From Gammaproteobacteria bacterium (lineage in GTDB: Bacteria; Pseudomonadota; Gammaproteobacteria; Thiohalospirales; Thiohalospiraceae): a stretch of 64,000 bases of DNA. A program made the position numbers and the translations under genes. Positions 37,783 to 57,712 of the stretch are shown here, one piece after another (position 1 is the first letter of the stretch; the number at the start of each line of letters is the position of its first letter). The notes below the pieces were generated by a model that made no database searches, was not told the DNA's origin, and was given only the letters and a program-made list of their open reading frames with translations. The stretch covers positions 3,035 to 67,034 of the forward strand of contig JAOUJT010000001.1 in assembly GCA_029883105.1 (NCBI GenBank). The letters are read 5' to 3'.

Positions 37783-37785
37783 CAA

Positions 37786-37828
37786 TTGCGCCATATGTGG
37801 TATCTTATATGAATAGGAATAATCCTAT
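37786..37828 (+). promoter_or_regulatory. class-3 conserved element, copy 1 (TTGCGC-N7-GGTATCTTATATGAATAGGAATAATCCTAT)
   Basis: 30-nt core is identical to the copies at 39915-39944 and 40331-40360. Contains the perfect inverted repeat ATAGGA-ATAA-TCCTAT (37813-37828). Ends about 22 nt before the next start codon. Confidence 0.55.
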
Positions 37829-37850
37829 TATAATAATCAGGAGATACTCG

Positions 37851-38135
37851 ATGAAATATTTAATTATAATAATAGCTCTACTAACAACCCCCGCGTTTGC
37901 CTGTAATTCTCATGATACTAATGGGTATATATGGATTGGGGCTGGACTTCATGACAGTCCACACGATGTAGCATTTGGAAAAGAGATAGCAGAGTGGGGT
38001 GTGAGCTTCAATTTACACCAGATCAGTCCTATCAACAGCCTCCGTTTCATCCTTAAGCACGATTCAGGGATATGGACGAGGGAGAGAGACTATGGCTACA
38101 ACACTGCAACCTTCAGGCTACAAGCTAACTTCTAA
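37851..38135 (+). CDS. small secreted protein or lipoprotein (94 aa)
   Basis: CAGGAG RBS. Signal sequence MKYLIIIIALLTTPAFA|C. Ends in ...TATFRLQANF (C-terminal Phe). HDSG segment present. Confidence 0.55.
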   Translation: MKYLIIIIALLTTPAFACNSHDTNGYIWIGAGLHDSPHDVAFGKEIAEWGVSFNLHQISPINSLRFILKHDSGIWTRERDYGYNTATFRLQANF

Positions 38136-38810: not shown

Positions 38811-38825
38811 CCCGTTAAATTATCC
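38811..38825 (+). promoter_or_regulatory. class-1 conserved motif, variant CCCGTTAAATTATCC
   Basis: 14/15 match to the 1034 and 17594 copies, with the flanking C and CTG also shared with 17593-17611. Lies 170 nt upstream of the holin gene. Confidence 0.45.
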
Positions 38826-39899: not shown

Positions 39900-39944
39900 A
39901 ACTGCGCAAAAATGGGTATCTTATATGAATAGGAATAATCCTAT
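39900..39944 (+). promoter_or_regulatory. class-3 conserved element, copy 2
   Basis: AACTGCGCAAAAATGGGTATCTTATATGAATAGGAATAATCCTAT. 65/71 nt identical to copy 3 when counted through the start codon. Confidence 0.55.
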
Positions 39945-39965
39945 CACAACAACTGAGGTAATATT

Positions 39966-40277
39966 ATGAACAAGCAATTTGCAGAAATGATCGAAAAAAG
40001 TCTTTCAGGTTTTAGTAAGTACGGTTTGGAGGCGTTGGCAAAACGTAAGCTGACGGCTTCGGATATCCTTGCGAGAGCTACAAAACGGGTTGTCTCACGG
40101 GAAGATGAAGAGTATTACGTTCTTGTACGTAGTCCTACGAACGACCAGATAAAAGCCCGTATTACTGACCGCACACGGGTAGGTGATTTGGAAGGTATAA
40201 TCGATGGTCTGCTGGACCGACTTAATGACAGTATGGAAACTGACATCCACGGCAAGAAGCCAAAAGCTAAAGCCTAG
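39966..40277 (+). CDS. hypothetical protein (103 aa)
   Basis: GAGGTAA RBS supplied by the conserved cassette. Followed by the hairpin TACGGGG-N8-CCCCGTA (40292-40313). Confidence 0.6.
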   Translation: MNKQFAEMIEKSLSGFSKYGLEALAKRKLTASDILARATKRVVSREDEEYYVLVRSPTNDQIKARITDRTRVGDLEGIIDGLLDRLNDSMETDIHGKKPKAKA

Positions 40278-40315: not shown

Positions 40316-40360
40316 AACTGCGCAAAAACAGGTATCTTATATGAATAGGAATAATCCTAT
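40316..40360 (+). promoter_or_regulatory. class-3 conserved element, copy 3
   Basis: AACTGCGCAAAAACAGGTATCTTATATGAATAGGAATAATCCTAT, with the same spacing to the start codon as copy 2. Confidence 0.55.
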
Positions 40361-40381
40361 CACAACAAACGAGGTAACACT

Positions 40382-40672
40382 ATGAAAAATCAAGAAGTAT
40401 TAAAGAAAATCCCAGAAGCCATCCTTTGGTATTTAAAGACAATGCTCGTAAATATGCTGATGCTTTTATGCGGAATCTTTCTTGTGTATGAAATTCAGCT
40501 TTTGATCCTCTATCCGATCTTAATTGCACAAGCTTTTATGTATGCTGCTTTCTTCGCAGCTATAATGACTGCTGGTCAATATATAGCTGCTAGTGTATAT
40601 GAGTGGGTCAGCCGCTGTAAATATGATCGTGAGCATGGTATCATCAACGGCAAATGCCAGGCGGCTGTCTAA
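40382..40672 (+). CDS. membrane protein (96 aa, multi-TM)
   Basis: Hydrophobic segments LVNMLMLLCGIFLVY, LILYPILIAQAFMYAAFFAAIMTAG. Confidence 0.55.
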   Translation: MKNQEVLKKIPEAILWYLKTMLVNMLMLLCGIFLVYEIQLLILYPILIAQAFMYAAFFAAIMTAGQYIAASVYEWVSRCKYDREHGIINGKCQAAV

Positions 40673-40870: not shown

Positions 40871-41275
40871 ATGTCATCAACAATTGTAGCAATCCCAGGG
40901 TACTTCTGTATAAGTGATAAATATCCAACATCTCTGGGAAATATCAACTTGAGCTTCGAACACTATGCAGAAGGTGTTCAGCGGCTCGATTTAGCAGGGC
41001 TTGAACCTGTAGAAGTGACGTCGATTTGGAATCATGAAAAGAAACCAATGAGACGCCGGTGGGGTGGATTTGTATTCAACCTTCAAGTCTTTGGTGTGAT
41101 TGATACAAAGGCGAAATCAAAAGAGAAACCTGCGTCAAAACAGGGGAATCAAAAGACGGAACAAACGAAAACAACAAAAGGGTCTCTTATCCCATTCTTT
41201 GTGGAAAAAAGAATATATGATTATATCGTACAACAAACCAACTATGCGAGACCTGCGGATGTAATAAGATTATAG
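40871..41275 (+). CDS. hypothetical protein (134 aa)
   Basis: ATG at 40871 after AGGAGGAAAGGT. The track start at 40808 overlaps the upstream gene. Confidence 0.55.
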   Translation: MSSTIVAIPGYFCISDKYPTSLGNINLSFEHYAEGVQRLDLAGLEPVEVTSIWNHEKKPMRRRWGGFVFNLQVFGVIDTKAKSKEKPASKQGNQKTEQTKTTKGSLIPFFVEKRIYDYIVQQTNYARPADVIRL

Positions 41276-41332
41276 CTGCTACCCCATATGACACCTTCGG
41301 GTGTTGTATGGGGGCGTGTAGCTTTATTTTTT
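41274..41332 (+). terminator. strong rho-independent terminator
   Basis: CCCCATATGACACC-TTCG-GGTGTTGTATGGGG 14-bp stem with G-U pairs, an outer AGCT/AGCT extension, then TTATTTTTT. Confidence 0.85.
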
Positions 41333-41547: not shown

Positions 41548-43803
41548 ATGATAAAACAAAAGATAATTCTGACAACAACAAAAAGGATAGCAAAGGAAAT
41601 TGCACCACAAAACCCCCTAATATATCTAAAAGAACATGATGTCGAAAAGTATATTAATGAATTAATCTCGACAGTCTATCTGTTCACACGCCCTAAGAAG
41701 GGTTCATCGGACCCTCTCTATATGGTTGAAATTATATCGGCTATCGGACATCGGGTCAGAGGAAAGTTAGGACTTAGAAAAGACTCAGCGTTAGCAGCTA
41801 AAACAGGAGCGTTTCTTTTATATACATTCGAAGTACTTAATATCATCCATGTTATCCTTGGAGCTGGTAGACGTGGACATAATGCGTACATTGTAGATGT
41901 TTTGGACGATGCTACGATAAATGAACTATGGAAGGAGCTAGGTGACCGCGAGATCGAGAAGTTACCTGCGCTACAGCCGCATCAGGATTGGAAGCATTCA
42001 AGGCATCCTACAGGAATGCTTATGGTAAAAACAGGATGTAAAGAGACACTTGAATCACTAACACCTCAAACACATCCTATCGTCTTCAACGTCCTGAACA
42101 GAGCTCAACAAGTAGGTTGGCGAATAAATACGGAGATTCATCACTTACAACAATGGGCACTAAAGTACAAAACAGTCGCCTTTGCAGATATATGGGAACA
42201 ACAAAACCCTGAAGCGCGTGCTACAAAATTAAGAGAGGCTCGATCTATTGACTCGATTGCGAGTAAATACCTAGGGACAACCTTCTATCATCTCTATTAC
42301 TATGACTTCAGAGGTCGTAAGTATGCAGCCACTGCTTATCTACACGAACAAGGAAGTGATGTAGCGAAAGGTCTCTTGCTCAGAGATGATAAGAAGCGAA
42401 TAGGAAAAGAAGGATTTTTCTGGCTACTTGTGAGTATCGCCTCTAACTGGGGCGGTGAGAGTGGTCGTGAAGATGGATTGAAAACAGATAAAATACCTCT
42501 TGAAGAAAGGTATCAATGGGCGCTCGCAAATGAGGATATTTTATTGTCCTACGCGAAATCACCTAAAGTGAATCAGGGATGGATGAAAGCTGATAAGCCC
42601 TGGCAATTTATAGCAGCGTGTTTTGAGCTAAGGTCTTGTTACCGATGGGCTAAGTATGACCATACTAAGCATGATCACCTAAAGGAGGAAATCTATGAAT
42701 ATGAGTCTCATCTTGAGTGCTTTATTGATGGTAGTAACAATGGCTCTCAGCATCTATGTGCGCTTACACGCGACGAAGTTACGGCTCCTCACGTTAATCT
42801 TGTGCCACTTGATTATCCTGGGGACCTCTATAAATATGTTGCAGATCATGTTTGGGACAGCTTAGAGGCTCAAGTTAATCTCCTGACAGAAGCTGAAGTT
42901 GAAATTTGTGAAAAGTTCATAGATGATCTGGTCGTGCACAAAAAGCGAATAAACAGTGCGCCCCGTGGTAGCGAAATCAAAAGGCTCCTTGTGGATAAGA
43001 TACGAAAGTTTAAGGAGGAACATGGACTTTTAATGGTGCTTGTAGCTCCTGTATTTTGGTTTAGAATCCAGGATGCTAAGGAGAAACGTAAGATTGTGAA
43101 GAGAAACACAATGACGCTTCCCTATGGCGGAACACCCTATGGACTTGGACAACAGATCATTGATGATGCTAAGAAACATGGGATTGAACAACTCCTATAT
43201 ATGGAACATAGCTGGGGCGCTTTCTTAGGAAGAGAAGTATTTAAAAACTGCCAGGAAGCTCTTAAACGACCTATGCAACTCCTTGATATCTTTGAGAAGG
43301 CAGGGAAGCTAGCAGAAGCCGAAGAGAGATTCTTAAAATGGACTGTACCAATAACAAACTTCCCGGTAGTGCAGCACTACACGGAAGGTCGTGTGAAGAA
43401 GATATGGGTTCAGTACGGACCGCCTAAAGGAACCAGAAATTCAACAGGTTACTTTACAAACACCTTACAATTGCATATTTGCTTTGTAGAAGATCCACAA
43501 CCATCGAAGCGCAAACAAGCACAGGGAGCTTCTCCTAATGCCATTCACAGCCTAGATGCAGCACACTTAATGCTTACAGTAGATGAGGCACCTTTTCCAA
43601 TAACAACTGTTCATGATTCTTTTGGATGTTTGTTAGCTGATATGCCTGAACTGTACAAACTAATACGTGAAACATTCGTAGAACTCCATGAGGTCAATCC
43701 ACTCTATTCATTGTTTGAACAGATAGGAGGCGACATCTCAGACGTTGATCTGGGGAATCTTGATATCAATTTGATACTTGATTCAGAATATTGTTTTTCA
43801 TAG
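41548..43803 (+). CDS. T7-like single-subunit DNA-dependent RNA polymerase
   Basis: YYDFRGRKY...EQGSDVAKGLL (42304-), motif A IDGSNNGSQH (42727-), motif B KRNTMTLPYGG (43099-), motif C TVHDSFG (43609-43626). ATG at 41548 preferred; TTG at 41530 is possible. Confidence 0.9.
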   Translation: MIKQKIILTTTKRIAKEIAPQNPLIYLKEHDVEKYINELISTVYLFTRPKKGSSDPLYMVEIISAIGHRVRGKLGLRKDSALAAKTGAFLLYTFEVLNIIHVILGAGRRGHNAYIVDVLDDATINELWKELGDREIEKLPALQPHQDWKHSRHPTGMLMVKTGCKETLESLTPQTHPIVFNVLNRAQQVGWRINTEIHHLQQWALKYKTVAFADIWEQQNPEARATKLREARSIDSIASKYLGTTFYHLYYYDFRGRKYAATAYLHEQGSDVAKGLLLRDDKKRIGKEGFFWLLVSIASNWGGESGREDGLKTDKIPLEERYQWALANEDILLSYAKSPKVNQGWMKADKPWQFIAACFELRSCYRWAKYDHTKHDHLKEEIYEYESHLECFIDGSNNGSQHLCALTRDEVTAPHVNLVPLDYPGDLYKYVADHVWDSLEAQVNLLTEAEVEICEKFIDDLVVHKKRINSAPRGSEIKRLLVDKIRKFKEEHGLLMVLVAPVFWFRIQDAKEKRKIVKRNTMTLPYGGTPYGLGQQIIDDAKKHGIEQLLYMEHSWGAFLGREVFKNCQEALKRPMQLLDIFEKAGKLAEAEERFLKWTVPITNFPVVQHYTEGRVKKIWVQYGPPKGTRNSTGYFTNTLQLHICFVEDPQPSKRKQAQGASPNAIHSLDAAHLMLTVDEAPFPITTVHDSFGCLLADMPELYKLIRETFVELHEVNPLYSLFEQIGGDISDVDLGNLDINLILDSEYCFS

Positions 43804-44463: not shown

Positions 44464-44673
44464 ATGATGCTGATAACACGAAAAGATCCATTCACCGGCG
44501 TAGTGAATGAGATGACACTTGATATTACTCGCAAACAATTGGACAGATGGGAGAAAGGAGGAGAACTGATACAGAATGTATTTCCAACTTTGTCCCCTGA
44601 TGAACGCGAATTTCTCATGACTGGAATAACACCAGATTCGTGGGATGAACACTTAGGTAATGATCAAGAATGA
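44464..44673 (+). CDS. conserved small phage protein
   Basis: 69 aa. FPTLSPDEREFLMTGITPDSWDE resembles a widely distributed small phage domain of unknown function. Confidence 0.55.
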   Translation: MMLITRKDPFTGVVNEMTLDITRKQLDRWEKGGELIQNVFPTLSPDEREFLMTGITPDSWDEHLGNDQE

Positions 44674-45284
44674 GTAGAACAATAATAGTAGAGAACTGTG
44701 AACTTTGGTACTGTAAACTGGACCCAAAGTTCCCCAATAAAAAGTTCAGCAAAAAGAATCCGGCTTGGGAAATACAAATCCGGACAAAAGTAAAAGAGGT
44801 CGCTGATTTATGGCGGGAATCAGACCTCCGCGTCAAAAGGATTATTCCTGAAGATGCTGATGAGAATCCAATCATTGAGGATGCTTATTGGCGTGTGAAT
44901 CTCAGGAAACGATCCATCAAGGCCGATGGAGACCCAGCAAATCCAGTGGATGTTGTCGATGGTAATCTAGACGAGATCGATGCAAGATCGTTAGGAAACG
45001 GTTCAGTCGGAAACCTTCGTATCTTTCAATATGAATACGAGAATGACGACGATGATAAAGGTATTGCAAACATGCTCATGGGTATCCAGGTAACAAAGCA
45101 TGTTGTGTACAAACCTAAAGAACAGGCGGCTTTTGGTCAAACTACGACTGAAGTCATAACGCCAGTTGAAGACCCAGATGAGAAAGAAAATCCCTGGGAT
45201 AGTTCTGACGATGAGTCAGAAGATGCTAAAGAAAAGAAACCTATTAAAGTGGGATCGAAAGACGATGAGACTAAAGACTTCTAA
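44670..45284 (+). CDS. single-stranded DNA-binding protein, T7 gp2.5-like
   Basis: Position next to the polymerase genes. Acidic C-terminal tail ending in Phe (...SKDDETKDF), as in gp2.5. 204 aa. Confidence 0.55.
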   Translation: MSRTIIVENCELWYCKLDPKFPNKKFSKKNPAWEIQIRTKVKEVADLWRESDLRVKRIIPEDADENPIIEDAYWRVNLRKRSIKADGDPANPVDVVDGNLDEIDARSLGNGSVGNLRIFQYEYENDDDDKGIANMLMGIQVTKHVVYKPKEQAAFGQTTTEVITPVEDPDEKENPWDSSDDESEDAKEKKPIKVGSKDDETKDF

Positions 45285-45343
45285 AGTCTAGCTCGTTATC
45301 TCGATGCCTGCTAAAATACATACTGTAAAATGCACCTAAAAGG

Positions 45344-45363
45344 CATGCCGGAATCGTAACCGG
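45344..45363 (+). promoter_or_regulatory. class-2 conserved motif (CATGCCGGAATCGTAACCGG)
   Basis: One of four intergenic copies of AT(G/C)CCGGA-N3/4-GTAACCG. Lies 38 nt upstream of the next start codon. Confidence 0.5.
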
Positions 45364-45400
45364 TAAATTTAATTAAATCAATTAAAGCAGGAAAATACGA

Positions 45401-45901
45401 ATGAGTGAATATAAAATATGCTTTATCAAGGGTGATGAAGTATTAAGAACTGTAAAGGCAACCTGTCTCGAAGGTATCAAAGCTTCAGATGTCCAGGGAA
45501 AGAAACGTGTCGAAGTCTACGAGACGGTATCAAGAAAAGAATATCATGTCGCAACCATCGTAGGATCGATTTCGTTGAATTTCTGGAAGTCAAAGTTGGC
45601 TACGCCAGACCTGCCGAGCGACGAAAAAGACAATCTAGCAATAAATCCTGGACATTACCAGGGATACATTGCCGATATGCAATGGTGGGAGACGGAGCAG
45701 TATCTTGCAAAGGATTTTCAAAGTGTCTCTCTCAATCAGGTACGTAAGTACATTGCGCGAGTCGGTAAGAAGGATGATGAGCTGCAGGAGCTTTTAAAGG
45801 CAAAATGGTATCTTGACTTCCAAATTGCGAAGATGATCAATAACAATGAACCTATTCGAGTTGCAGATGTCCAATCGCTGATTGCCAGCTATAAGGTATA
45901 A
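45401..45901 (+). CDS. DUF3310-like protein
   Basis: INPGHYQG...VRKYIARVGKKDD..ELLKAKWYLDFQI matches the NPxHY ... KY..R ... KA.WYL pattern of that family. Confidence 0.5.
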   Translation: MSEYKICFIKGDEVLRTVKATCLEGIKASDVQGKKRVEVYETVSRKEYHVATIVGSISLNFWKSKLATPDLPSDEKDNLAINPGHYQGYIADMQWWETEQYLAKDFQSVSLNQVRKYIARVGKKDDELQELLKAKWYLDFQIAKMINNNEPIRVADVQSLIASYKV

Positions 45902-45917
45902 CACCTAGGAGGCTGTG

Positions 45918-46097
45918 ATGATCAGTGACGACAGAAAAGCTTTTGAAGAATGGATACAGAAACCGCCTTATGAGGAAAATACTCCGAGATACACAGAAAA
46001 GGATAGCTGGCCTGGTCAATACCAGAGTATCAATGTGCAACTCGCATGGGAGGCTTGGCAAGCGGGTCAAAACTTAGGACATGCAGGAGAAAACTAA
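45918..46097 (+). CDS. hypothetical protein (59 aa)
   Basis: ATG at 45918, 5 nt after AGGAGG. TAATG overlap with the DNA polymerase start. Confidence 0.5.
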   Translation: MISDDRKAFEEWIQKPPYEENTPRYTEKDSWPGQYQSINVQLAWEAWQAGQNLGHAGEN

Positions 46098-48103
46098 TGT
46101 TCAGACTGGTTTTTGATATTGAAGGCGATGGGTTCCTAAGAGATGTAACACGGATGTGGACGATCATTATCCATAACTTAACCACAGGCGAGCGCGTGGA
46201 ATTCCTTGAGAATGACCTAGGCTGGCAGGATTATTTTAATAATAATGTGGGGATTGTAGTTGGGCATAACATTTTAGGATATGATGTTCCTGTCCTAGAA
46301 AAACTCTTTGGGTATAAATTCCCAAAAGAAACTCAATTTCATGACACGCTTTTGATGTCACAGATTCTTGACTACCGGCGATTCGGCTACCAAGGGCACT
46401 CACTAGCGGTGTGGGGTAAATCACTAAATTATCCAAAAATTGACTTCCACGACTTCTCAAAATGGACTCCTGAGATGTCTAAGTATTGTCACCAAGACGT
46501 AAATCTTAACGTTGAGGTGTATAAAATTCTAATACAAGAATATTATGATTTGTTTGACAAACTTGAGAAAGATGAGGGAACAGGTCATAGAATAAAAACA
46601 TTTCTTCAGGCTGAACATGCTGCCACTACTTGGCAAGCTCAGGCTGAATTGCACGGCTGGCCCTTCGACAAAGAAGGAGCTATTGAACTCTTCGGTAAGT
46701 TAGAGGAGGAACTGACTGAAATTCGGGATAAATTAGAAGGAGTCTTAGGCTCAAAGTCAATTGCAATCGACAAGGTAAAAGGAATTGTGCCTCACAAAGA
46801 ACCTAAGTGGGTTGCTACAGGGTACTATCATGCACATACTGCGCAGTGGTTTGGTATCGATCCTCGCTGCGGTTCTGATCTTTCTACAAAAGAGGCTCGT
46901 ATGATCATAGCCTCCGGCGAATATGAGGAGGAAGATGAAATAATGAAGATGGCTCAGGCTATCCTGACGCATGGTGAGCGACCGATTACAGGCCCGTATT
47001 GTAGAGTAGACTTCCAGAAACTAAAGTTAAGCTCTGTCGCAGATGTTAAAATTTATCTATATCGACATGGATGGGAACCCTCCGAATGGAACACTAAATG
47101 GAATCCTGCTACTAAAAAGAATGAAAACACTTCACCTAAAATCATTGATGACGATCTCGATCTTTTAGGCGAAAACGGAAGGTTGTATCGAGCCTTTACA
47201 ACAGCAGAATCTCGATACAGTATAGTAAAAACATGGATTGAAAACGTTGATGACAATGGAATGCTTCATGGAAACTCAAGGATGATAGGAACGCCGAGTA
47301 TGCGCGCTACACACCAGATCATTGTAAATGTACCCTCTGGAGAGCTTAAGGATGATGGAACTCCTGTTAGTAAATGGGGTCCTGAGATGAGAGCCTTGTT
47401 TAGGTCAAAGCCAGGCTGGAAATGCATAGGATGTGATTCAAAAGGCAACCAGGCGCGAGGTCTCGCACACTATCTAGGAGATCAGGAGTTTATAGACGTA
47501 ATCCTGCACGGTGATATTCATGCATACAACGCCGTTAAATTAACCGAAGCATTGTCGAAGATGGGTGTACAGCACACGGTACCAAGAAGTGCCGCAAAGA
47601 GAATCCTGTATGCCTTCCTATTTGGAGCTTCAGGTAAGAAGCTGTGGAGCTATATATTTGGCACCTTCAATGCAACTAAAGGAAATAAGTTAAAAAAGGA
47701 GTTTATTAAAGCAGTACCTGGGTTTGAAGACCTTAACAAAAAGCTGGAGAATATCTATGGAAGCACCTCAAAGTTTGGATACGGCTACATTCCTTCAATG
47801 GTTGGTAATAGAATTTATGTTGATTCTTTTCATAAACTTCTTGTATATTTACTACAATCCCTTGAAAAGATTACATGTAGCACTGCGGTTATGCTCACTA
47901 TGCAGCGTCTGGAGGAAGAAAGTATTCCATACATCCCTCTCATCTACTATCATGATGAGGAGGATTTCATGGTACCAGAAGAATTTGCAGAACGTGCAGC
48001 TGAAATAGGTTCAGGCGCCTTCAAGGATGCGGCGCTCCTATATGATATCAAAATAATGGATGGTGATGCAAAGATCGGCGACAGCTGGCTAGATATTCAT
48101 TAA
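46097..48103 (+). CDS. family A DNA polymerase with 3'-5' exonuclease domain
   Basis: Exo motifs FDIEGDGF, GHNILGYDVPVL, YCHQDVNL. Polymerase motifs CDSKGNQARGLAH (A), RSAAKRILYAFLFGAS (B), YYHDEEDF (C). Confidence 0.9.
   Translation: MFRLVFDIEGDGFLRDVTRMWTIIIHNLTTGERVEFLENDLGWQDYFNNNVGIVVGHNILGYDVPVLEKLFGYKFPKETQFHDTLLMSQILDYRRFGYQGHSLAVWGKSLNYPKIDFHDFSKWTPEMSKYCHQDVNLNVEVYKILIQEYYDLFDKLEKDEGTGHRIKTFLQAEHAATTWQAQAELHGWPFDKEGAIELFGKLEEELTEIRDKLEGVLGSKSIAIDKVKGIVPHKEPKWVATGYYHAHTAQWFGIDPRCGSDLSTKEARMIIASGEYEEEDEIMKMAQAILTHGERPITGPYCRVDFQKLKLSSVADVKIYLYRHGWEPSEWNTKWNPATKKNENTSPKIIDDDLDLLGENGRLYRAFTTAESRYSIVKTWIENVDDNGMLHGNSRMIGTPSMRATHQIIVNVPSGELKDDGTPVSKWGPEMRALFRSKPGWKCIGCDSKGNQARGLAHYLGDQEFIDVILHGDIHAYNAVKLTEALSKMGVQHTVPRSAAKRILYAFLFGASGKKLWSYIFGTFNATKGNKLKKEFIKAVPGFEDLNKKLENIYGSTSKFGYGYIPSMVGNRIYVDSFHKLLVYLLQSLEKITCSTAVMLTMQRLEEESIPYIPLIYYHDEEDFMVPEEFAERAAEIGSGAFKDAALLYDIKIMDGDAKIGDSWLDIH
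47532..47545 (+). promoter_or_regulatory. intragenic copy of the class-1 motif (CCGTTAAATTAACC)
   Basis: Exact 14-mer of the intergenic class-1 motif, inside the DNA polymerase ORF in the same orientation. Confidence 0.3.
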
Positions 48104-48144
48104 TCTAGGGAAACTAAATTTGAACCTTTTTAACAGGACATTTT

Positions 48145-48393
48145 GTGGCTAAATTTAAAAAAGTACGCAAGGCTCGACTTTTCAGGGCACTTGCAATAAA
48201 ACTTACGATGATGCGATCGTACAAGCACATGTACCCAGCACCTATGCGTCTCAAGCTCATTGAAGCGATAAATGAGTTAGGGAACTCGGGACATCGTATT
48301 CGTATGGACCTCTATCGAAAGCTCACTGAGCCAGTTCTCAAAGATGAGTTTTACAGGCCTCTCCGCGTGGCGTACCACAAGCGCGGGCGTTAA
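48145..48393 (+). CDS. small basic hypothetical protein
   Basis: 82-aa ORF with GTG start; Arg/Lys-rich. Confidence 0.45.
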   Translation: MAKFKKVRKARLFRALAIKLTMMRSYKHMYPAPMRLKLIEAINELGNSGHRIRMDLYRKLTEPVLKDEFYRPLRVAYHKRGR

Positions 48394-48454
48394 ATCCAAC
48401 AGTTCGTATAAAAGTTGGTCACACTCCAGGTATGCTCTGGAATTGTGTAAGAAG

Positions 48455-48488
48455 CTATCGCTAGCAACGATGCCGGAAAAGTAACCGT
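48455..48488 (+). promoter_or_regulatory. class-2 conserved motif, extended form (CTATCGCTAGCAACGATGCCGGAAAAGTAACCGT)
   Basis: 30/34 identical to 53336-53369. The core is shared with 45344 and 48668. Confidence 0.55.
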
Positions 48489-48667
48489 GCTTTTAACCAG
48501 GAAACTATTTGGAGGAAATAATATGCCTGAATAATAAGTAACTGCAACGAAGTGCAGCTCTCTAAAACAAATACTACTAGCTAGCATAGGGCGCAATCCA
48601 CAGGGGATATCTATGCAGAAACACCTACCAAAAATCTCATGCGATGTCTAGAAAATCCCGCGCTGAC

Positions 48668-48687
48668 ATCCCGGATAACGTAACCGG
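48668..48687 (+). promoter_or_regulatory. class-2 conserved motif (ATCCCGGATAACGTAACCGG)
   Basis: Core motif with a one-nt longer spacer. Lies 36 nt upstream of the 48723 start codon. Confidence 0.5.
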
Positions 48688-48722
48688 GGCTAATCAATTA
48701 TACAATCCGTATGGAGAGCATT

Positions 48723-49478
48723 ATGGCTGAAAATGTAGATGATGGCGGCTTTTCGTCAATTCTATCAAATAACAGAGAGAGGATGGATGAAATATCAACT
48801 CTCAAAAATAGCAAGGTAACAGGAAAGGCTCGCAATGTTGGGTTCGGCATTATTCTTATTGGGATTCTCCTAATGTTTATTGTCTTTGCAGCCCAAATTA
48901 TCACAGGAATGTTTGCTCTGGTTCTTACACTAGTTGTAAGTGTCGGCGGGTTTCTGGGACTCCGGTGGTTGAAAACAATGGATCCTCTCATTCGACAGAA
49001 GACATTGAATATGCGCCTGGAGAAGATGATAGGAGAAGCCAGGGAGAGGGCGATGGAGCAGTTGCAGAATCAGGTGATGAAGAATGCTGATCGTCTGGCA
49101 AATGCGAAGGAAGCGATTATTAAAGTAGGAGCACTTATTAATAAGATGGAAAGTAAAATAAATCCTGCCGACGCTGGCTCTGCAAAGCACACTAAAAAGC
49201 TTAAAATGAAAGCAAAGATAGAAGAAGCTCACGATGCTATGAAACAAAACTATGTAGCAGCGCAGGACGCCGATCTTGCCTTTAAAGCAAAAGTACATGA
49301 GTACCGTGAAATGGATGAATTTGCAGATATCGTTTCAGACGCACAGTCTATAATGAATTCAGCAGCAGACGGTGAGCTGGAAGAACTTCTATCACTGGAA
49401 GCTTTCGGACAGATCGAAACTAACTTTCATACTGCGGTAAGCTCTTTAGAAGCTTCTGCACTAGAATTTAAAGGGTAA
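48723..49478 (+). CDS. membrane-anchored coiled-coil protein
   Basis: ATG at 48723 after GGAGAG. Two TM helices (FGIILIGILLMFIVFAAQIITGMFALVLTLVVSVGGFLGL), then a long helical charged domain. Confidence 0.55.
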   Translation: MAENVDDGGFSSILSNNRERMDEISTLKNSKVTGKARNVGFGIILIGILLMFIVFAAQIITGMFALVLTLVVSVGGFLGLRWLKTMDPLIRQKTLNMRLEKMIGEARERAMEQLQNQVMKNADRLANAKEAIIKVGALINKMESKINPADAGSAKHTKKLKMKAKIEEAHDAMKQNYVAAQDADLAFKAKVHEYREMDEFADIVSDAQSIMNSAADGELEELLSLEAFGQIETNFHTAVSSLEASALEFKG

Positions 49479-49481
49479 CAC

Positions 49482-49634
49482 ATGGGTAAGTCAACAGATA
49501 TTCAATCATCTACACGTTGGATGTTGATCATCATTGGAATAGGTCTGGCGGCAATTGTGCTGGTAGGGCTCTCTAATGCATTTATCGGCGGATCATCTTC
49601 GCCATCCTCTTCAACTGAAGAACCATTGTTCTAA
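49482..49634 (+). CDS. small single-TM protein (50 aa, below ORF-track cutoff)
   Basis: MGKSTDIQSSTRWMLIIIGIGLAAIVLVGLSNAFIGGSSSPSSSTEEPLF. Tightly spaced between neighbouring genes. Confidence 0.45.
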   Translation: MGKSTDIQSSTRWMLIIIGIGLAAIVLVGLSNAFIGGSSSPSSSTEEPLF

Positions 49635-49643
49635 GGTATTACT

Positions 49644-50591
49644 ATGAAAAAATCAAGAAAAATGTTAACAGCATTCTGTGTAGCAGCGATGCTTATTGCG
49701 AATGTTCATGCAGGACAAACACTCCGTATCGGTACAGGTTCTGAAGCCGGTACATATTTCCCTCTAGGAAACGATATCAAGGATTTCTGTGGAGGTGCTA
49801 CAAGCAAGGAACTCGATGTACAGGTCAGTGGCGGCGCCATTGATAACTTGTTGGGACTCATCGAAAAGAGATACGATGCAGGTATTGTTCAGATCGATGT
49901 GTTGAAGTTTTATGAAACAAAAATAATGCCAACAAAAGTGAATGAAAACAGACTCAAGGTTGTAATGGGACTGCACGCTGAGTCGGGACACCTTCTGATT
50001 CCAAAAGGCTATAAACCATCAGGAGGCGGCTTTGGGAGTCTTCTTTCTAGCATAGGCGAAAATATTGGCGTCAATGATAAGAAAGGTATTAGTATCGATC
50101 TTATCAAAGGTCAAGAAGTAGCCGCCTGGGGAGGGAGCACGCTTAGTTTAAAGGCTTTAAGTTCTTTCCTGAAACTAGGAGTCAAGCCTGTTGATATAAA
50201 GAAAGGTCAGGCTGTGAATATGCCGATTCTTGTTATTGAAGGACAGCCTAGTTCTGTTGTACAGGGATACCTTGACAGTGGTAAATATACGTTGGTCCCG
50301 ATAGATCCTACAAGCGTGTCATCTGTTGCGCCTTTTTACTCTGCAACAACATTGACGTATATGTCAAAGGGCAAACAGTTCTCTGTGAAATCTTTTGCAG
50401 TGCGGGCTGTCTTAATAGGGAAGGCTTCAAGGAAAGCCGAAAGGAATGTAGCGTTCTCTGAACTAGCGACATGCCTCTCTAGTAGTTTAGAGGACCTTGC
50501 AGACGATTCAGCTACAAACCCGAATTGGGAAACGATCTTCGAACTTGTAGATGAAGGTCAAATCAATTGGGGCTATTTCCCACTCCTTTAG
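49644..50591 (+). CDS. periplasmic solute-binding protein, TAXI (TRAP-associated) family-like
   Basis: Signal peptide MKKSRKMLTAFCVAAMLIANVHA|G, then TLRIGTGSEAGTYFPLGNDI, which matches the TAXI N-terminal signature (l.igTGg.gGtYyp.G). Confidence 0.6.
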   Translation: MKKSRKMLTAFCVAAMLIANVHAGQTLRIGTGSEAGTYFPLGNDIKDFCGGATSKELDVQVSGGAIDNLLGLIEKRYDAGIVQIDVLKFYETKIMPTKVNENRLKVVMGLHAESGHLLIPKGYKPSGGGFGSLLSSIGENIGVNDKKGISIDLIKGQEVAAWGGSTLSLKALSSFLKLGVKPVDIKKGQAVNMPILVIEGQPSSVVQGYLDSGKYTLVPIDPTSVSSVAPFYSATTLTYMSKGKQFSVKSFAVRAVLIGKASRKAERNVAFSELATCLSSSLEDLADDSATNPNWETIFELVDEGQINWGYFPLL

Positions 50592-50606
50592 AAAACATAA
50601 CTACGG

Positions 50607-50636
50607 AGAGCCGCTGATAAGGGCGGCTCTTTCTTT
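50607..50636 (+). terminator. rho-independent terminator
   Basis: AGAGCCGC-N8-GCGGCTCT followed by TTCTTT. Confidence 0.75.
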
Positions 50637-50657
50637 AATAAATCATTGAGAAATAAA

Positions 50658-50978
50658 ATGGCTGAATATTTAGATGAACACGTGGATTTACTAATGATAA
50701 CTTTCGGAACACAAGAAGGTATCTTTAAGGATGGTATCCCGAAATTGATCAAGGCAATTGTAGCAAACAATCCTGCGTGGTTTGTTGGTCCTGCTCTTCT
50801 TATACACTACTCATGGGTGCCGGTAATCAAGGATAGAATTAGTACAGAAGGAGGGCGTATCTTCTTCGACGGTATGCAAATGATACCTACTGAGCAGGTT
50901 GAGGAATTTACAATAGCGCTTGTTGATGCAGGGACGGTATCGGAAGAGCCATCAGAAAACCCTAAGGAGCACCATTGA
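50658..50978 (+). CDS. hypothetical protein
   Basis: ATG at 50658; 106 aa. Confidence 0.5.
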   Translation: MAEYLDEHVDLLMITFGTQEGIFKDGIPKLIKAIVANNPAWFVGPALLIHYSWVPVIKDRISTEGGRIFFDGMQMIPTEQVEEFTIALVDAGTVSEEPSENPKEHH

Positions 50979-50979
50979 G

Positions 50980-51582
50980 ATGGATACTACTGATACTAGT
51001 TGGCGCTTCGAAGGTGCCGGTGAAGATTTCAAAAATCTCTGTTTAGCTTATCTAGGAGCAGCTTCTGAAGCAGAGCTAGCCGAGAAGGAAATGTATTGGA
51101 TCCTTCCACACGGTAAACATTGTGAAGAGCTCTGGGAAATCCCTCCTGCTATCAATATTGAACTTGAATTCAAAGATGTTGGAAGACCGGCTGCGTATGA
51201 TGAGAATGGTCTGCTAGAAGACGCAGGCTTTAGTATCGGATACGTAGCGTTTTGCACCTACAAAGGACGTAAGGTTATTCTTGAATGCAACGCGAGTCCT
51301 TATTGTATTCACTGGAAGAAGTCCGACTTTCCCGAAGTCTTTGAAAGCGATACTTCGACTGATCCACTAAAGGAAGCAGACCAATTATCCTATGAGGAGC
51401 GTTGTAAGCAATACCATATATATGAAGAAAGGGCGCATACACTACAGCATCTCGTAAATATCGTAGGGAAAGCCGTCAATAATCTGCCAATCTCCAAAGT
51501 GACCTCTGATGGAATACTGTGCATGAGTGTTAGCTCGTATAATGCCTTGCTTGATACCTTGGACGAATTTGTTACGGAGTGA
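50980..51582 (+). CDS. hypothetical protein
   Basis: ATG at 50980 immediately after the previous stop; 200 aa. Confidence 0.5.
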   Translation: MDTTDTSWRFEGAGEDFKNLCLAYLGAASEAELAEKEMYWILPHGKHCEELWEIPPAINIELEFKDVGRPAAYDENGLLEDAGFSIGYVAFCTYKGRKVILECNASPYCIHWKKSDFPEVFESDTSTDPLKEADQLSYEERCKQYHIYEERAHTLQHLVNIVGKAVNNLPISKVTSDGILCMSVSSYNALLDTLDEFVTE

Positions 51583-51776
51583 TTACTATGGAGGACCCGG
51601 AAGAGATATATCTGCAACCAGAATGTTGCATTGAATCTAACACAGGGAGGTTGTGGTGTGAAGACGATATTGATGATTGTCGCGAAGGAAATCCGTGGGT
51701 TCGATATATCCGTGCCGATCTCGTTGAGAGACGCGCTACAGAGATATCGGAGCTGCAAGAAGTCGTAAAAGAATGA
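51579..51776 (+). CDS. small Cys-rich hypothetical protein
   Basis: 65 aa, ATGA-type overlaps on both sides. Sequence EIYLQPECC....RLWCEDDIDDC....WVRYIRADL. Confidence 0.5.
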   Translation: MITMEDPEEIYLQPECCIESNTGRLWCEDDIDDCREGNPWVRYIRADLVERRATEISELQEVVKE

Positions 51777-52036
51777 GTGAAAGAGTAAAAAGATATGACC
51801 ATCTGCTCACTAGGGTAGAGTATCCGAGAGAAAGAGGTTACCGCATGGAGGCTATCCGCCTGCCGAAATGGATTCATATACGTATCACTGACACGGAACA
51901 CCATAAATACTTAACAGTACATTCTCGTATACATGTCAACAAAGAAGTCAGAGTTGGACCTAGCTATAGCTTAGCCTTTACTGACCATGAAATTATCAAG
52001 GAGCTGAGCAGCGACATAAGCTATCGGTTCCTTTAA
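51773..52036 (+). CDS. hypothetical protein
   Basis: 87-aa ORF with overlapping start. Confidence 0.5.
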   Translation: MSERVKRYDHLLTRVEYPRERGYRMEAIRLPKWIHIRITDTEHHKYLTVHSRIHVNKEVRVGPSYSLAFTDHEIIKELSSDISYRFL

Positions 52037-52053
52037 CTATTAGGAGACACTGA

Positions 52054-52524
52054 ATGCCAAGTGTAAAAGAAGAATGTCCTCTTTGCGAGGCTCGCAAAAC
52101 TATGAAACGACTCCACGCTGAAAATAAGGATCTGATTAGCCGCAATGCGTTTCTAAGACAGCGTCCAGATCTACCTGTCGACAGGATTCCTGCGTATGAA
52201 GAAATGAACAAGAAGATATCAGAGCTGGAGTGGAGGCTTATGATTGATACTCTGAATCCAAATAGACGACTACATCTTGAGGCGTTAGTGGCAAAGAATA
52301 AAAAGCTTGAAGAGGAACTGGAAAAGCTGAAAACACTGGTGGATAATTCAGCAGATGCCTTTGAGTACTTTGAAACCATTGAAGCGATGGGTGACGATGG
52401 AACTATCGTCGGAGGTGAACATATAGAACTTCTCGTTAAGGCAGCTAGAATTTCCAAGGAGTATGTTTTAGAGGAGCAAGATAACGTTTTGTATGTAGTA
52501 GATTCAACACAGGAGAAACAGTAG
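52054..52524 (+). CDS. coiled-coil hypothetical protein
   Basis: 156 aa with N-terminal CPLC. Confidence 0.5.
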   Translation: MPSVKEECPLCEARKTMKRLHAENKDLISRNAFLRQRPDLPVDRIPAYEEMNKKISELEWRLMIDTLNPNRRLHLEALVAKNKKLEEELEKLKTLVDNSADAFEYFETIEAMGDDGTIVGGEHIELLVKAARISKEYVLEEQDNVLYVVDSTQEKQ

Positions 52525-52526
52525 TA

Positions 52527-52865
52527 ATGGATATCACGACGTTAAAGATAATTCCTCTCCTGGATGTCCTTTATGATCTGCAAGAGCTAGAATGTAAGAC
52601 GTTTGGAATGGAAACTCCTCCAAAAGGACACTCCTTTAAATTACCAAACGGAGAGACTGGTATTAAGCAGAGACTATGGGAGATACTTCGAGAGCGTCAC
52701 TGGGGAAATCAAGACTTTGGAAACGACAGACTCTATATAATTCCTGTAGAAGAGCTGGCGGAACTTCCCGGAGACATGTTAGTACTCATTACACGTTGCG
52801 TCGATGCTATCAATGAGCCTACGGACTCTCTACCCGCATGTCTCGTCTTTTATATTAGCTGGTAG
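52527..52865 (+). CDS. hypothetical protein
   Basis: 112-aa ORF, 2 nt after the previous stop. Confidence 0.5.
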   Translation: MDITTLKIIPLLDVLYDLQELECKTFGMETPPKGHSFKLPNGETGIKQRLWEILRERHWGNQDFGNDRLYIIPVEELAELPGDMLVLITRCVDAINEPTDSLPACLVFYISW

Positions 52866-52871
52866 GTATTT

Positions 52872-53288
52872 ATGAATACTATACACATCGCAACGTTGGT
52901 TGACTTCGCAGAAGCGATAGAGTCTGGAAAGAAACTTTTCTATACAAACGGACTTCCTGTAGGTGAGAAAACACCATTAGGTGATATTAGAAACGCCATT
53001 GAGATGAAAAGGATCATACAATCGCCGTGGACCATTAACTTCGAGGACTATCGAGGATTTCTACCCACACCTATCCTTAAGGAACCTATTAAAGGAAGCC
53101 TCTACTATACTATTGTTGACGGTCGAGCCTCTGTAAAAGAATGGACAGACTCAAATGCTGATTGGAGACTTCTCACTACAGGTTTTGTCTGGTATACAGA
53201 TGAAGATGCAAACGGATTTCTGAAAGGAATGAAATTGCTTGTAGCTCATGTAGCAGGGGTTCCCTTACGAAAATCCAACGCGCAGTAA
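52872..53288 (+). CDS. hypothetical protein
   Basis: 138-aa ORF. Confidence 0.5.
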   Translation: MNTIHIATLVDFAEAIESGKKLFYTNGLPVGEKTPLGDIRNAIEMKRIIQSPWTINFEDYRGFLPTPILKEPIKGSLYYTIVDGRASVKEWTDSNADWRLLTTGFVWYTDEDANGFLKGMKLLVAHVAGVPLRKSNAQ

Positions 53289-53335
53289 GTCGGGGTTGGT
53301 TGCACTTGTGTCTGCGGACAAGTAATATTATAAAA

Positions 53336-53369
53336 CTATCGCTCGCATCGATCCCGGAAAAGTAACCGG
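53336..53369 (+). promoter_or_regulatory. class-2 conserved motif, extended form (CTATCGCTCGCATCGATCCCGGAAAAGTAACCGG)
   Basis: 30/34 identical to 48455-48488. Lies in a 366-nt non-coding gap. Confidence 0.55.
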
Positions 53370-53578
53370 AGTCTCTGACTTAGAGACAGACCACGTCCTA
53401 ATAAAATGGGAGAATAAAATGTGAATCAGGGGAGGACTGCGGCCTAGATGTCCGTAGATAGCCGTTTTTAAGATAGTAGGCGAACAATAAAAACAAGAGA
53501 CCTGTTGAGGTTTCGATAATATGACTTCGAGTCTGCAGCAACTAGGCAGATCAAGTACGTATTTTCAACTGTGAAAGA

Positions 53579-53624
53579 AGCCTCCTTCTGGTCGATGTCT
53601 GCTAGCGGCATTCAGAAGGAGGTT
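53579..53624 (+). other. long RNA/DNA stem-loop in a non-coding region
   Basis: CCTCCTTCTG (53581-53590) pairs perfectly with CAGAAGGAGG (53613-53622) around a 22-nt loop, with two further flanking pairs. Confidence 0.5.
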
Positions 53625-53654
53625 GTATTAACTTAAAATAAATAGGAGCGTACG

Positions 53655-54454: not shown

Positions 54455-54461
54455 GAAAACT

Positions 54462-57707: not shown

Positions 57708-57712
57708 AATAA

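Follow-up and report, generated by a model that had tools for sequence, protein, structure and literature searches.

Phages T7 and Xp10 start transcription with the RNA polymerase (RNAP) of the host, and T7-type RNAPs in long-tailed phages such as Xp10 have, to our knowledge, so far been treated as rare curiosities. Phage N4 has two polymerases of its own, an injected virion RNAP (gp50) and RNAPII (gp15/gp16) (PMC4496689). The N4-type virion RNAPs carry a metallopeptidase domain and are confined to N4-like podoviruses, to which injected single-subunit RNAPs have until now been tied (PMC5512222). A preprint on the Thermus phage P23-45 describes a virion RNAP fused to the tape measure protein together with a nonvirion RNAP; the virion enzyme transcribes the pre-early genes, including the gene for the nonvirion RNAP (bioRxiv 10.1101/2022.12.01.518664). 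The Ruegeria phages DSS3_VP1 and DSS3_PM1 belong to the Naomviridae and have dU-substituted DNA; their published description makes no mention of RNA polymerases (PMC8323127).

The window (the whole 64-kb stretch of DNA analyzed here) is part of an apparently complete siphovirus-type genome of about 74 kb, which encodes a canonical T7-family RNAP and a second, diverged RNAP fused to a MuF protein. The occurrence of this pair in 18 near-complete relatives and in DSS3_VP1 suggests that two phage polymerases act in a relay like that of N4, one so far undescribed. No description of this two-polymerase design in long-tailed phages was found in the literature; it is a fresh variation on the strategy of N4 and P23-45.

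Genome organization and the canonical polymerase

The main genes of the window, by coordinates or start position, are as follows.

1997, TerL
11365, portal
12968..17587, + strand, fusion of MuF (a minor head protein associated with the portal) and a highly diverged single-subunit RNAP, 1539 aa (MuF-RNAP)
17674, scaffold
18394, major capsid protein
20865, major tail protein
22824, tape measure, 2573 aa
41548..43803, + strand, canonical T7-family single-subunit RNA polymerase, 751 aa
43816..44673, + strand, two small genes for products of 214 aa (acidic tail) and 69 aa, following the RNAP gene and preceding SSB
44670..63096, + strand, T7-like module for replication and nucleotide metabolism, following the RNAP gene
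44670, gp2.5-like SSB
45401, nucleotide kinase
46046, family-A DNA polymerase (T7-like PolA)
54342, 5'-3' exonuclease
55968, primase-helicase
57713, ribonucleotide reductase (RNR)
61774, ligase

The ends of the contig overlap by 133 bp (128/133 identical), as expected of a complete phage genome, and its GC content is 42.4%, against 48.7% for the bacterial MAG bin that contains it. Besides a tape measure and a major tail protein, the genome encodes tail completion proteins, indicating a siphovirus-type and not a podovirus virion. The original prediction placed every credible gene on the + strand, and a greedy tiling of ORFs along the full 74-kb contig bears this out: 85 of 93 ORFs are on that strand, the eight minus-strand ORFs are gap fillers of 45-110 aa, and GC skew is positive in 31 of 32 bins of 2 kb. 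The further claim that all long minus-strand ORFs lie inside longer + strand genes holds for every ORF above 100 aa except 51572-51904, whose product is low-complexity and Ser-rich, and which is covered on the + strand by two abutting ORFs (51579-51776 and 51773-52036). A link between the two-polymerase design and noncanonical DNA through a PurZ-like gene was considered and dropped; the gene is missing in the 18 relatives and in DSS3_VP1 and is an accessory of the window phage, not a family trait.

The canonical RNAP opens the replication module, as predicted, with T7-like genes from SSB to ligase following from 44670 onward. Its open frame spans 41530-43803, and the ATG at 41548, favored by the N-termini of homologs (consensus MKxxL...), gives 751 aa plus a stop codon; the frame predicted earlier is thus present, but the length of 752 aa given for it had counted the stop. 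All four motifs quoted in the prediction were found, DFRGRKY at residues 253-259, DGSNNGSQH at 394-402, KRNTMTLPYGG at 518-528, and VHDSFG at 688-693. The protein matches Pfam RNA_pol (PF00940, 1.4e-67) and phrog_414 (2.7e-113), and T7 RNAP PDB chains match it over T7 residues 287-883 (E about 4e-46). D394 and D690 correspond to the T7 palm aspartates D537 and D812 and are invariant in alignments of 24 and 47 sequences; R514, K518, Y526, G527, and H667 (T7 R627, K631, Y639, G640, and H784) are invariant or nearly so, the T7 pair H811-D812 is also aligned to invariant residues, and the DxRGR motif (T7 421-425; here D253-F-R255-G-R257-K-Y259) is invariant in the family.

An AlphaFold model (pLDDT 89.5, pTM 0.80) has T7 and mitochondrial RNAPs as its best Foldseek matches (E 1e-29), with TM scores of 0.73 (3e2e) and 0.67 (promoter complex 1cez); the fold agrees with the initiation and intermediate complexes of T7 RNAP. 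The β-hairpin at 100-118 aligns with the T7 intercalating hairpin (T7 230-245), and a long β-hairpin at 612-652 aligns with the T7 specificity loop and is about 11 residues longer. The N-terminal domain is about 140 aa shorter than that of T7 (188 versus 325 aa), and no basic AT-rich recognition loop was recognizable in the alignment and model against T7; a cofactor may be needed. The product is apparently an active T7-family RNAP and would be the nonvirion transcriptase of the phage; by itself the enzyme is ordinary.

Homologs of the canonical RNAP form at least 501 metagenomic protein clusters (E≤1e-10), and the best 120 of these at least 501 are 58-68% identical and 674-799 aa long. The same lineage occurs in the siphoviruses DSS3_VP1 and DSS3_PM1 (Naomviridae) and in Pelagibacter phage Kolga, so the original statement that T7-type RNAPs meet long tails only in a few lineages such as Xp10 was too narrow. 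A megablast search with 20 kb against named phages gave no match, and relatives were found at the protein level only.

The MuF-RNAP fusion and its co-inheritance

The MuF domain (PF04233) occupies residues 144-250 of the fusion, which also matches the head morphogenesis family phrog_241 (1.9e-55); the polymerase part is the C-terminal 900 aa of the 1539, and the Pfam matches to PF00940 are weak. In 17 homologs the residues D858xRxRxY, D1008, K1074/Y1082/G1083, H1412, and H1437-D1438 are invariant, and the window protein has V in place of the usual G of DxRGR. The gene lies between those for portal and scaffold, the usual place of a packaged MuF protein. Annotations of DSS3_VP1 and DSS3_PM1 call the fusion no more than 'minor head protein-like' or 'head morphogenesis'; in DSS3_VP1 it is gp108 (1463 aa), and the canonical RNAP is gp080.

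Profile comparison by hhalign joins MuF-RNAP to the canonical family (98.3%, E 2.2e-14) at 17% identity. In the tree, each enzyme forms a separate deep clade (100/100) with a DSS3_VP1 orthologue inside it, and both clades are recovered with and without the N4 virion RNAPs. By these profile and tree data the two polymerases are homologous but ancient paralogues, in keeping with the predicted pair of highly diverged enzymes; the low identity and separate clades rule out recent duplication, which had been named as an outcome that would refute the prediction. MuF-RNAP could not be placed as sister of the N4 virion RNAP or of Alteromonas phage H4/4 gp3, since three long branches meet at one node; a clade of MuF-RNAP with H4/4 gp3 is compatible with the data (p-AU 0.35).

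Both polymerase genes are present, in the same order, in all 18 related IMG/VR records checked (56-81 kb in length, 15 of them rated at least 90% complete), and in the cultured phage DSS3_VP1 in the order seen in the window. That one polymerase gene is a decaying or noncatalytic relic, or that the pair is an artefact of assembly or binning, is extremely improbable: the GC content of the contig differs from that of its bin and the V in DxRGR is unusual, but both frames are open and full length, the catalytic residues are all invariant in 24 canonical and 17 MuF-RNAP sequences, the terminal overlap is that of a complete phage genome, and the same gene order recurs in 18 independent assemblies and one cultured phage. 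The 18 co-inheriting genomes and the invariant residues in practice refute this reading. Both enzymes are thus shown to be intact, anciently diverged, and always co-inherited. The pair belongs to the core of a large siphovirus lineage from the environment, of which DSS3_VP1, a phage of Ruegeria pomeroyi DSS-3, is a cultured and tractable member.

Promoter-like motifs and the proposed relay

The window contains two classes of repeated element together with hairpin terminators; a further motif is confined nearly to the window phage.

931..1025, + strand, two tandem hairpin + CTTTATTTTTT terminators (repeat D11; -21.1 and -18.5 kcal/mol), closing the preceding gene block
1034..1048, + strand, promoter-like motif of class-1, CCCGTTAAATTAACC, preceding the packaging genes
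17594..17608, + strand, class-1 motif past the MuF-RNAP gene and ahead of the scaffold/capsid genes
37784..37861, + strand, repeated cassette copy 1, core GGTATCTTATATGAATAGGAATAATCCTAT (direct repeat family D1, three copies)
38811..38825, + strand, class-1 motif with one mismatch, ahead of endolysin-like genes 38995-39857
39900..39977, + strand, cassette copy 2 (core at 39915-39944), 51 nt ahead of gene 39966
40316..40393, + strand, cassette copy 3, 51 nt ahead of gene 40382, with no further copy before the RNAP gene
41272..41332, + strand, hairpin + CTTTATTTTTT terminator/attenuator, some 220 nt before the start of the RNAP gene
47531..47545, + strand, putative class-1 motif with one mismatch, within the DNA polymerase gene, the only intragenic copy
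45348, 48473, and 53354, class-2 motif CCGGAAAAGTAACCG

With at most one mismatch allowed, CCCGTTAAATTAACC has four matches in the window, all on the + strand, where 0.00 are expected. The copy after the MuF-RNAP gene occupies the same site in 54 of 80 related loci, always on the + strand and within diverged flanks; the motif itself varies little among relatives, mostly at three central bases. Its pairing with a lysis gene recurs in two relatives (L009 and L016), and in 8 of 8 relatives examined the first copy past the RNAP gene lies 35-52 nt ahead of the SSB gene. Homologs of the 214-aa and 69-aa genes, whose products gave no family match, keep their place ahead of that first copy. DSS3_VP1 has its own motif, ATAGGKTRCGTTAAAGAGGGG, in 11 copies that have the core CGTTAAA in common with class-1; none lies between 29.4 and 45.9 kb, the interval that includes its RNAP gene (42.4-44.6 kb). 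From the lysis-gene copy to the RNAP gene, no class-1 motif was found in the window or in the relatives examined. A search of the AT-rich Kolga genome for a promoter motif gave nothing clear. The class-2 motif has 11 of 15 bases in common with class-1 and was considered as a variant of it, but it is absent from the relatives' class-1 position, makes its own CCGG...CCGG hairpin, and is not counted as a promoter.

The cassette core is identical in all three window copies; 15 of 27 relatives have it as well, always ahead of the RNAP gene and never downstream. DSS3_VP1 has two similar cassettes (…GGCATCTATAATGA; 35.8 and 36.2 kb) at the matching place. Between the cassettes and the RNAP gene stands a strong terminator, a predicted hairpin of -26.2 kcal/mol followed by a T-run; 22 of 27 relatives likewise have a hairpin with poly-T, 167-292 nt ahead of their RNAP gene. 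No conserved motif was found in the 170-290 nt between terminator and gene, so expression of the RNAP is assumed to occur by read-through. The motif layout and the terminator are thus shown to be conserved across the family.

The position of the canonical RNAP gene, in a block free of class-1 motifs and behind three cassettes and a presumably leaky hairpin/poly-T terminator, suggests that its earliest transcripts are made by a different polymerase. From this layout we lean, with moderate confidence, toward a relay in which another polymerase would make the canonical RNAP and the canonical RNAP would then read the class-1 motif. MuF-RNAP would be the likeliest first enzyme; it may be made late, be packaged at the portal, and enter the next cell together with the DNA. 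The canonical enzyme so produced would read CCCGTTAAATTAACC-type promoters before the packaging/portal/MuF-RNAP block, the scaffold/capsid block, and the lysis genes, and in relatives also the SSB/DNA-polymerase block, transcribing along the single coding strand to yield the next generation of MuF-RNAP. The predicted division of labor, with one polymerase injected early and one synthesized later, is consistent with gene position and motif layout. Several observations count against the relay: a strong terminator stands before the RNAP gene, the N-terminal domain of the canonical RNAP is short, Kolga has this enzyme but no RNAP domain on its MuF protein, the window phage lacks the class-1 copy ahead of the SSB gene that 8/8 relatives have, and cassette copy 1 is followed by a 94-aa ORF and then a tail-fibre-adhesin-like gene, an odd place for a strictly early promoter.

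In a stronger version, the whole programme of this widespread lineage, the Naomviridae included, would run free of host RNAP: MuF-RNAP would transcribe the canonical RNAP gene from the GGTATCTTATATGA-type cassettes, and the canonical RNAP would use CGTTAAA-type promoters for everything else, the next MuF-RNAP among it. This would be the N4 strategy with an origin independent of Schitoviridae; we put it forward tentatively. It is somewhat unlikely, in our estimate, that host RNAP instead reads the cassettes and makes the canonical RNAP for middle and late transcription, a programme of the T7/Xp10 type in which MuF-RNAP might help pull in the DNA, prime synthesis, give a short pre-early burst, or do nothing for the RNAP gene. 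T7 and Xp10 do begin in this way, and Kolga has an RNAP of the same lineage with a plain MuF protein lacking an RNAP domain, so the canonical enzyme can work in a host-started programme. The hairpin with U-tract before the RNAP gene is of the classical type that stops bacterial RNAP, a perfect TATAAT lies within the DSS3_VP1 cassettes, and the cassettes resemble stand-alone promoter-gene units, one of them ahead of the tail-fibre-like gene. However, a scan for the sigma-70 consensus around the cassettes showed no enrichment (23 sites versus 20.9 expected), a result that taken alone is neutral as to host promoters, the MAG bin being an unreliable link to the host, and the cassettes of the window and DSS3_VP1 have no -35 element in common. 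The cassette core is nearly unchanged in relatives whose proteins are 52-68% identical and is kept in part in DSS3_VP1 (about 30%), and some function is called for where all genomes checked have kept an intact RNAP on a head protein that is packaged.

The assignment of motifs to polymerases was made by logic. No sequence feature ties a motif to an enzyme, and comparative data cannot separate the assignments because the two enzymes are always co-inherited, and the two motif classes are co-inherited as well; the two could be reversed, with MuF-RNAP reading class-1 and the canonical enzyme the cassettes, or one promoter class could serve both. We consider this improbable, since the gene for each enzyme would then need its own product, and starting the two circuits would take a third polymerase. 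In addition, the bulk late genes (capsid and packaging) have class-1 motifs before them, an arrangement more suited to a plentiful soluble enzyme than to a handful of copies bound at the portal, and the layout resembles that of T7, in which the series of phage promoters starts just past the RNAP gene. The relay as first set out remains our preferred reading, and in it we infer the packaging and injection of MuF-RNAP, the motif-enzyme pairing, and independence from host RNAP. If true, it would provide a second, independent model of host-independent phage transcription, two new orthogonal polymerase/promoter pairs for biotechnology, and a concrete function for a MuF fusion, and it would explain the strictly one-strand gene order.

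Comparison with described phages

The canonical RNAP has the fold and catalytic residues of T7 RNAP (BLAST E 5e-54) and hairpins that align with its specificity loop and intercalating hairpin, with a shorter N-terminal domain and a longer putative specificity loop. Both genomes have co-oriented genes and an RNAP gene that ends the early block, with phage promoters or promoter-like motifs starting just after it (in T7, the first lies 26 nt past gene 1); the sequence of these motifs, compared with the T7 class II/III promoters, and the siphovirus virion differ. Xp10 (Xipdecavirus) likewise joins a siphovirus structural module to a T7-like replication module, and its 746-aa RNAP is 27.5% identical to the canonical RNAP (E 1e-49) but groups in the tree with Autographiviridae enzymes, outside the canonical clade. 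Its genes run in two divergent arms and include a single phage RNAP gene and no annotated MuF-RNAP, whereas the window has one coding strand and two RNAPs.

N4 (Schitoviridae) is the closest parallel in logic: both phages have two single-subunit RNAPs of the T7 family suited to a relay, with one RNAP among the virion genes, presumed to be delivered with the DNA, and the other in the early/replication region. In contrast to the 3500-aa stand-alone virion RNAP of N4, a podovirus, the window enzyme is the C-terminal part of a MuF protein in a phage with siphovirus-type tail genes. MuF-RNAP barely matches the N4 mini-vRNAP (BLAST E 0.4), and the two are separate long branches in the tree; a tblastn search with the mini-vRNAP gave 369 records and, among the matches listed, only phages annotated with a virion RNAP. 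The canonical RNAP, far nearer to T7 RNAP (E 5e-54) than to N4 RNAPII (E 5e-6), is one chain, not split like gp15 and gp16, and the late genes of N4 use host RNAP. P23-45 is also a long-tailed phage with a virion structural protein fused to an RNAP, but its RNAPs are of the two-barrel (cellular) type and the carrier is the tape measure, not MuF.

The nearest described phages are DSS3_VP1 and DSS3_PM1, which have siphovirus morphology, orthologues of both polymerases (34% and 29% identity), and the same one-strand order of TerL, portal, MuF-RNAP, capsid, tape measure, small genes, RNAP, kinase, and PolA. They show no nucleotide similarity to the window, and their proteins are only about 30% identical; at 29-34% identity for the polymerases, the window lineage is therefore related to the Naomviridae but forms a separate family-level group.

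Genome organization and coding strand

The window (positions 3035-67034) lies on a contig of 74,179 bp, the longest of a 3.03-Mb MAG. The contig ends share a 133-bp overlap (128 identical), and with 42.4% GC the contig differs from its bin (48.7%); it thus represents a phage genome, complete or nearly so, that was binned with a bacterium. It encodes two single-subunit RNA polymerases (RNAPs):

12968-17587, + strand: MuF-RNAP, a MuF minor head protein fused to a diverged RNAP (1539 aa)
41548-43803, + strand: canonical RNAP, of the T7 family

The left part carries the structural genes, in the order terminase, a 1413-aa fibre protein, portal, the MuF-RNAP fusion, scaffold, major capsid protein, adaptor, major tail protein, a 2573-aa tape measure, and a 1887-aa distal protein. 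A stretch of small genes lies between this module and the canonical RNAP gene, which is followed by genes for a gp2.5-like SSB, nucleotide kinase, family-A DNA polymerase, 5'-3' exonuclease, gp4-like primase-helicase, ribonucleotide reductase, and ligase. The original observation that all credible genes are on one strand extends to the full contig, where a tiling with 93 ORFs has 85 on the + strand and eight short gap-fillers on the other. Two abutting + strand ORFs better explain the stretch of the sole doubtful minus-strand ORF (51572-51904), and GC skew is positive almost throughout.

Two further phage genes lie outside the window, one encoding a peptide deformylase (contig 69546-70136, window coordinates 66512-67102; Pfam 1.2e-25) and the other a PurA/PurZ-family adenylosuccinate synthetase (contig 72901-74064, window coordinates 69867-71030; Pfam 3e-46, phrog_1211 3e-51). 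An HD-domain protein (53819-54454) matches the phage "dATP triphosphohydrolase" family phrog_7076 (1.7e-18). PurZ, dATP triphosphohydrolase, and family-A DNA polymerase form the known gene set of 2-aminoadenine (Z-base) phages. The best phage matches of the PurZ-like gene are to large Rhizobium, Vibrio, and Mycobacterium phages, not to classical Z-genome phages; because it is absent from the 18 related genomes and the cultured Ruegeria phage DSS3_VP1 that were searched, it appears to be an accessory gene of this phage.

The canonical RNA polymerase

An open frame spans 41530-43803; the ATG at 41548, a start consistent with the N-termini of homologues, yields 751 residues. All four motifs cited for a T7-like polymerase are present in the translated ORF, which matches Pfam RNA_pol (1.4e-67) and phrog_414 (2.7e-113); on these grounds the original observation is genuine, far above chance level. 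Residues 148-750 align to T7 RNAP residues 287-882 (HMMER, E about 4e-46), with T7 D537, R627, K631, Y639, G640, H784, and H811-D812 corresponding to D394, R514, K518, Y526, G527, H667, and H689-D690, and the DxRGR motif at D253-R257. These catalytic residues are invariant or nearly so in alignments of 24 and 47 sequences. An AlphaFold model with 47 relatives as input (mean pLDDT 89.5, pTM 0.80) is closest to T7 and mitochondrial RNAPs, with a TM score of 0.73 against the T7 intermediate complex (3e2e).

Relative to T7, the enzyme has a shorter N-terminal domain (residue 188 is the counterpart of T7 325) and a specificity-loop hairpin (612-652) extended by about 11 residues. A beta-hairpin predicted at 100-118 aligns to the intercalating hairpin; no AT-rich recognition loop is evident from comparison with T7 and the model. 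The label "canonical" is therefore fair for the catalytic core, while promoter binding may differ in detail. Considered by itself, the enzyme adds a new member to the T7 RNAP family.

Directly after the gene lies a 214-aa protein (43816-44460) with a very acidic C-terminal third; family searches gave no match, and weak homologues occupy the equivalent place in relatives. Possible roles are those of a cofactor for the polymerase, an inhibitor of host RNAP, or a DNA mimic.

Distribution and ancestry of the polymerase pair

No nucleotide similarity to named phages was found. By canonical RNAP protein, the nearest named phages are Ruegeria DSS3_VP1 and DSS3_PM1 (34%), followed by Pelagibacter Kolga and Aegir (28%) and then Autographiviridae. 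Homologues form at least 501 clusters in a large protein database, the best 120 of which are of the same length and 58-68% identical, many on contigs of 60-97 kb. MuF-RNAP is 58% identical to gp47 and gp49 of "EBPR siphovirus 1" (partial genome), a homologue split by an HNH gene. Its DSS3_VP1 counterpart, annotated "minor head protein-like", is 29% identical across 90% of the window protein; DSS3_VP1 is a siphovirus with a tail of 230-240 nm, and its genes stand in the same order on a single strand. All related IMG/VR records of 56-81 kb retrieved with either polymerase were searched for the other gene, and 18 of 18 carry both; Kolga is an exception, with the canonical enzyme and a 633-aa MuF protein lacking a polymerase.

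A second, related phage is represented in the same MAG by a fragment, contig C164 (3216 bp), whose MuF-RNAP sequence covers the C-terminal 828 aa and shares 63% identity with that of the window. Group I introns (Rfam RF00028, 64-78 bits) break up the canonical gene in several relatives (loci L045, 7491-7724; L038, 1876-2106; L047, 7550-7746; also genomes G008, G009, and G013, and JF412302 gp48), adjoining catalytic-motif codons at about residues 250, 390, and 515-530. Some relatives have in-frame inserts in either polymerase (open frames of 994-1698 aa) or an HNH gene; both window genes are free of interruptions.

The two enzymes were predicted to be highly diverged paralogues, and profile-profile comparison bears this out (98.3% probability, E 2e-14, 17% identity over 644 columns). 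Invariance of DxRxRxY (858-864), D1008, K1074/Y1082/G1083, H1412, and H1437-D1438 in the MuF-RNAP family indicates that its polymerase is very probably active. Maximum-likelihood phylogeny places the two polymerases in separate clades, which together with the 17% identity rules out a recent duplication. The canonical enzymes of the window family, DSS3_VP1, and Kolga form a single clade (100/100), with Autographiviridae plus Xp10 as its sister group (89/82). A second clade (100/100) comprises the MuF-RNAPs, that of DSS3_VP1 among them; its branch is about 3.5 substitutions per site long and it is distinct from N4 virion RNAPs. The topology is unchanged without the latter. Since orthologues of both enzymes occur in DSS3_VP1 (Naomviridae) within these separate clades, the pair is older than the split of this lineage from Naomviridae, and it was not acquired as a unit from N4-like phages.

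In pairwise comparison beyond its own family, the MuF polymerase comes closest to gp3 of Alteromonas phage H4/4 (E 7e-12) and not to the N4 vRNAP (E 0.4); a clade uniting it with gp3 is neither supported nor rejected (p-AU 0.35). This podovirus (vB_AspP-H4/4, L162, NC_047834; Autographiviridae) also has two single-subunit RNAP genes (921-3047 and 19779-22169), with gp3 at the extreme left end and gp29 closing the replication module.

Promoter-like motifs and a proposed transcription relay

The window has four copies of the class-1 motif CCCGTTAAATTAACC at no more than one mismatch (0.00 expected), and a further one lies elsewhere on the contig; all five copies are on the + strand and four are intergenic.

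Intergenic class-1 copies (window coordinates)
1034, + strand: before packaging genes
17594, + strand: before scaffold/capsid genes
38811, + strand: before endolysin-like genes
65002, + strand, outside the window: before a late accessory block

The copy 3' of the MuF-RNAP gene is kept in 54 of 80 related loci with diverged flanks. Short TGT-loop hairpins (GAGC-TGT-GCTC, GGGC-TGT-GCCC, GAGT-TGT-ACTC) immediately 5' of the ribosome-binding site of the scaffold gene (17652-17680) recur at the same place in eight loci (L094, L101, L110, L120, L126, L135, L136, and L152) and persist in relatives even without the class-1 motif.

The canonical RNAP gene lies in a conserved interval without class-1 motifs, and the series restarts just after it, much as the phage promoter series of T7 begins just after its RNAP gene. 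In all eight relatives examined the first motif past the gene, usually separated from it by one or two small genes, stands 35-52 nt before the SSB gene. DSS3_VP1 has its own 21-nt motif, ATAGGKTRCGTTAAAGAGGGG, with the core CGTTAAA in common with class-1; 11 + strand copies occur within 50 kb and none at 29.4-45.9 kb, the interval containing its RNAP gene. Given this arrangement, the simplest reading is that the canonical RNAP would read class-1 promoters and be unable to start its own synthesis.

Upstream, a 78-nt cassette occurs at 37784, 39900, and 40316, with a 30-nt core identical in all three; the core recurs 5' of the gene, and never 3', in 15 of 27 relatives, and DSS3_VP1 has two cassettes ending GGCATCTATAATGA at the equivalent position. 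Another polymerase would read these cassettes and pass a terminator into the canonical RNAP gene. MuF-RNAP is the favoured candidate, since all genomes checked retain an intact polymerase on this portal-associated, presumably packaged protein, the cassette core does not resemble a sigma-70 promoter and is kept across hosts, and the resulting cross-wired circuit, with cassettes driving the canonical RNAP gene and class-1 motifs the MuF-RNAP gene, would be self-consistent. Three features count against it. A strong predicted hairpin with CTTTATTTTTT, one of four, stands between the cassettes and the gene (41272-41332, about 220 nt 5' of its start). Cassette copy 1 precedes a tail-fibre-like gene. 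The window phage, unlike the eight relatives, lacks the class-1 copy before the SSB gene, its first motif past the canonical gene being a class-2 element at 45348. That host RNAP instead reads the cassettes into the canonical RNAP gene is a serious rival, which we consider possible but rather unlikely.

Among 27 relatives, 22 have a hairpin with poly-T 167-292 nt 5' of the RNAP gene, and no conserved sequence was found between the two in those compared. Behind cassette copy 1, the stretch 37851-38683 codes for a 94-aa ORF and then for a 182-aa protein similar to short tail fibre/adhesin proteins (phrog_12032, 7.8e-28), apart from the main tail genes. A gene at 44464-44673 overlaps the SSB start at 44670. 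For the class-2 element, a structured RNA would account for the observations no less well than a promoter.

Full-text literature searches turned up no account of a MuF-RNAP or of a polymerase pair in Naomviridae, and the two-polymerase design is therefore regarded as a new form of a known strategy. The Naomviridae paper makes no mention of RNA polymerase (PMC8323127), and a 2017 survey of packaged multidomain proteins confined N4-like virion RNAPs to N4-like phages (PMC5512222). In its working the proposed relay resembles N4, in which an injected vRNAP is followed by RNAPII, although the window phage is not a member of the N4 group. P23-45 is closer, being a siphovirus with a vRNAP fused to a structural protein and a non-virion RNAP, but the window phage does not belong with it either.
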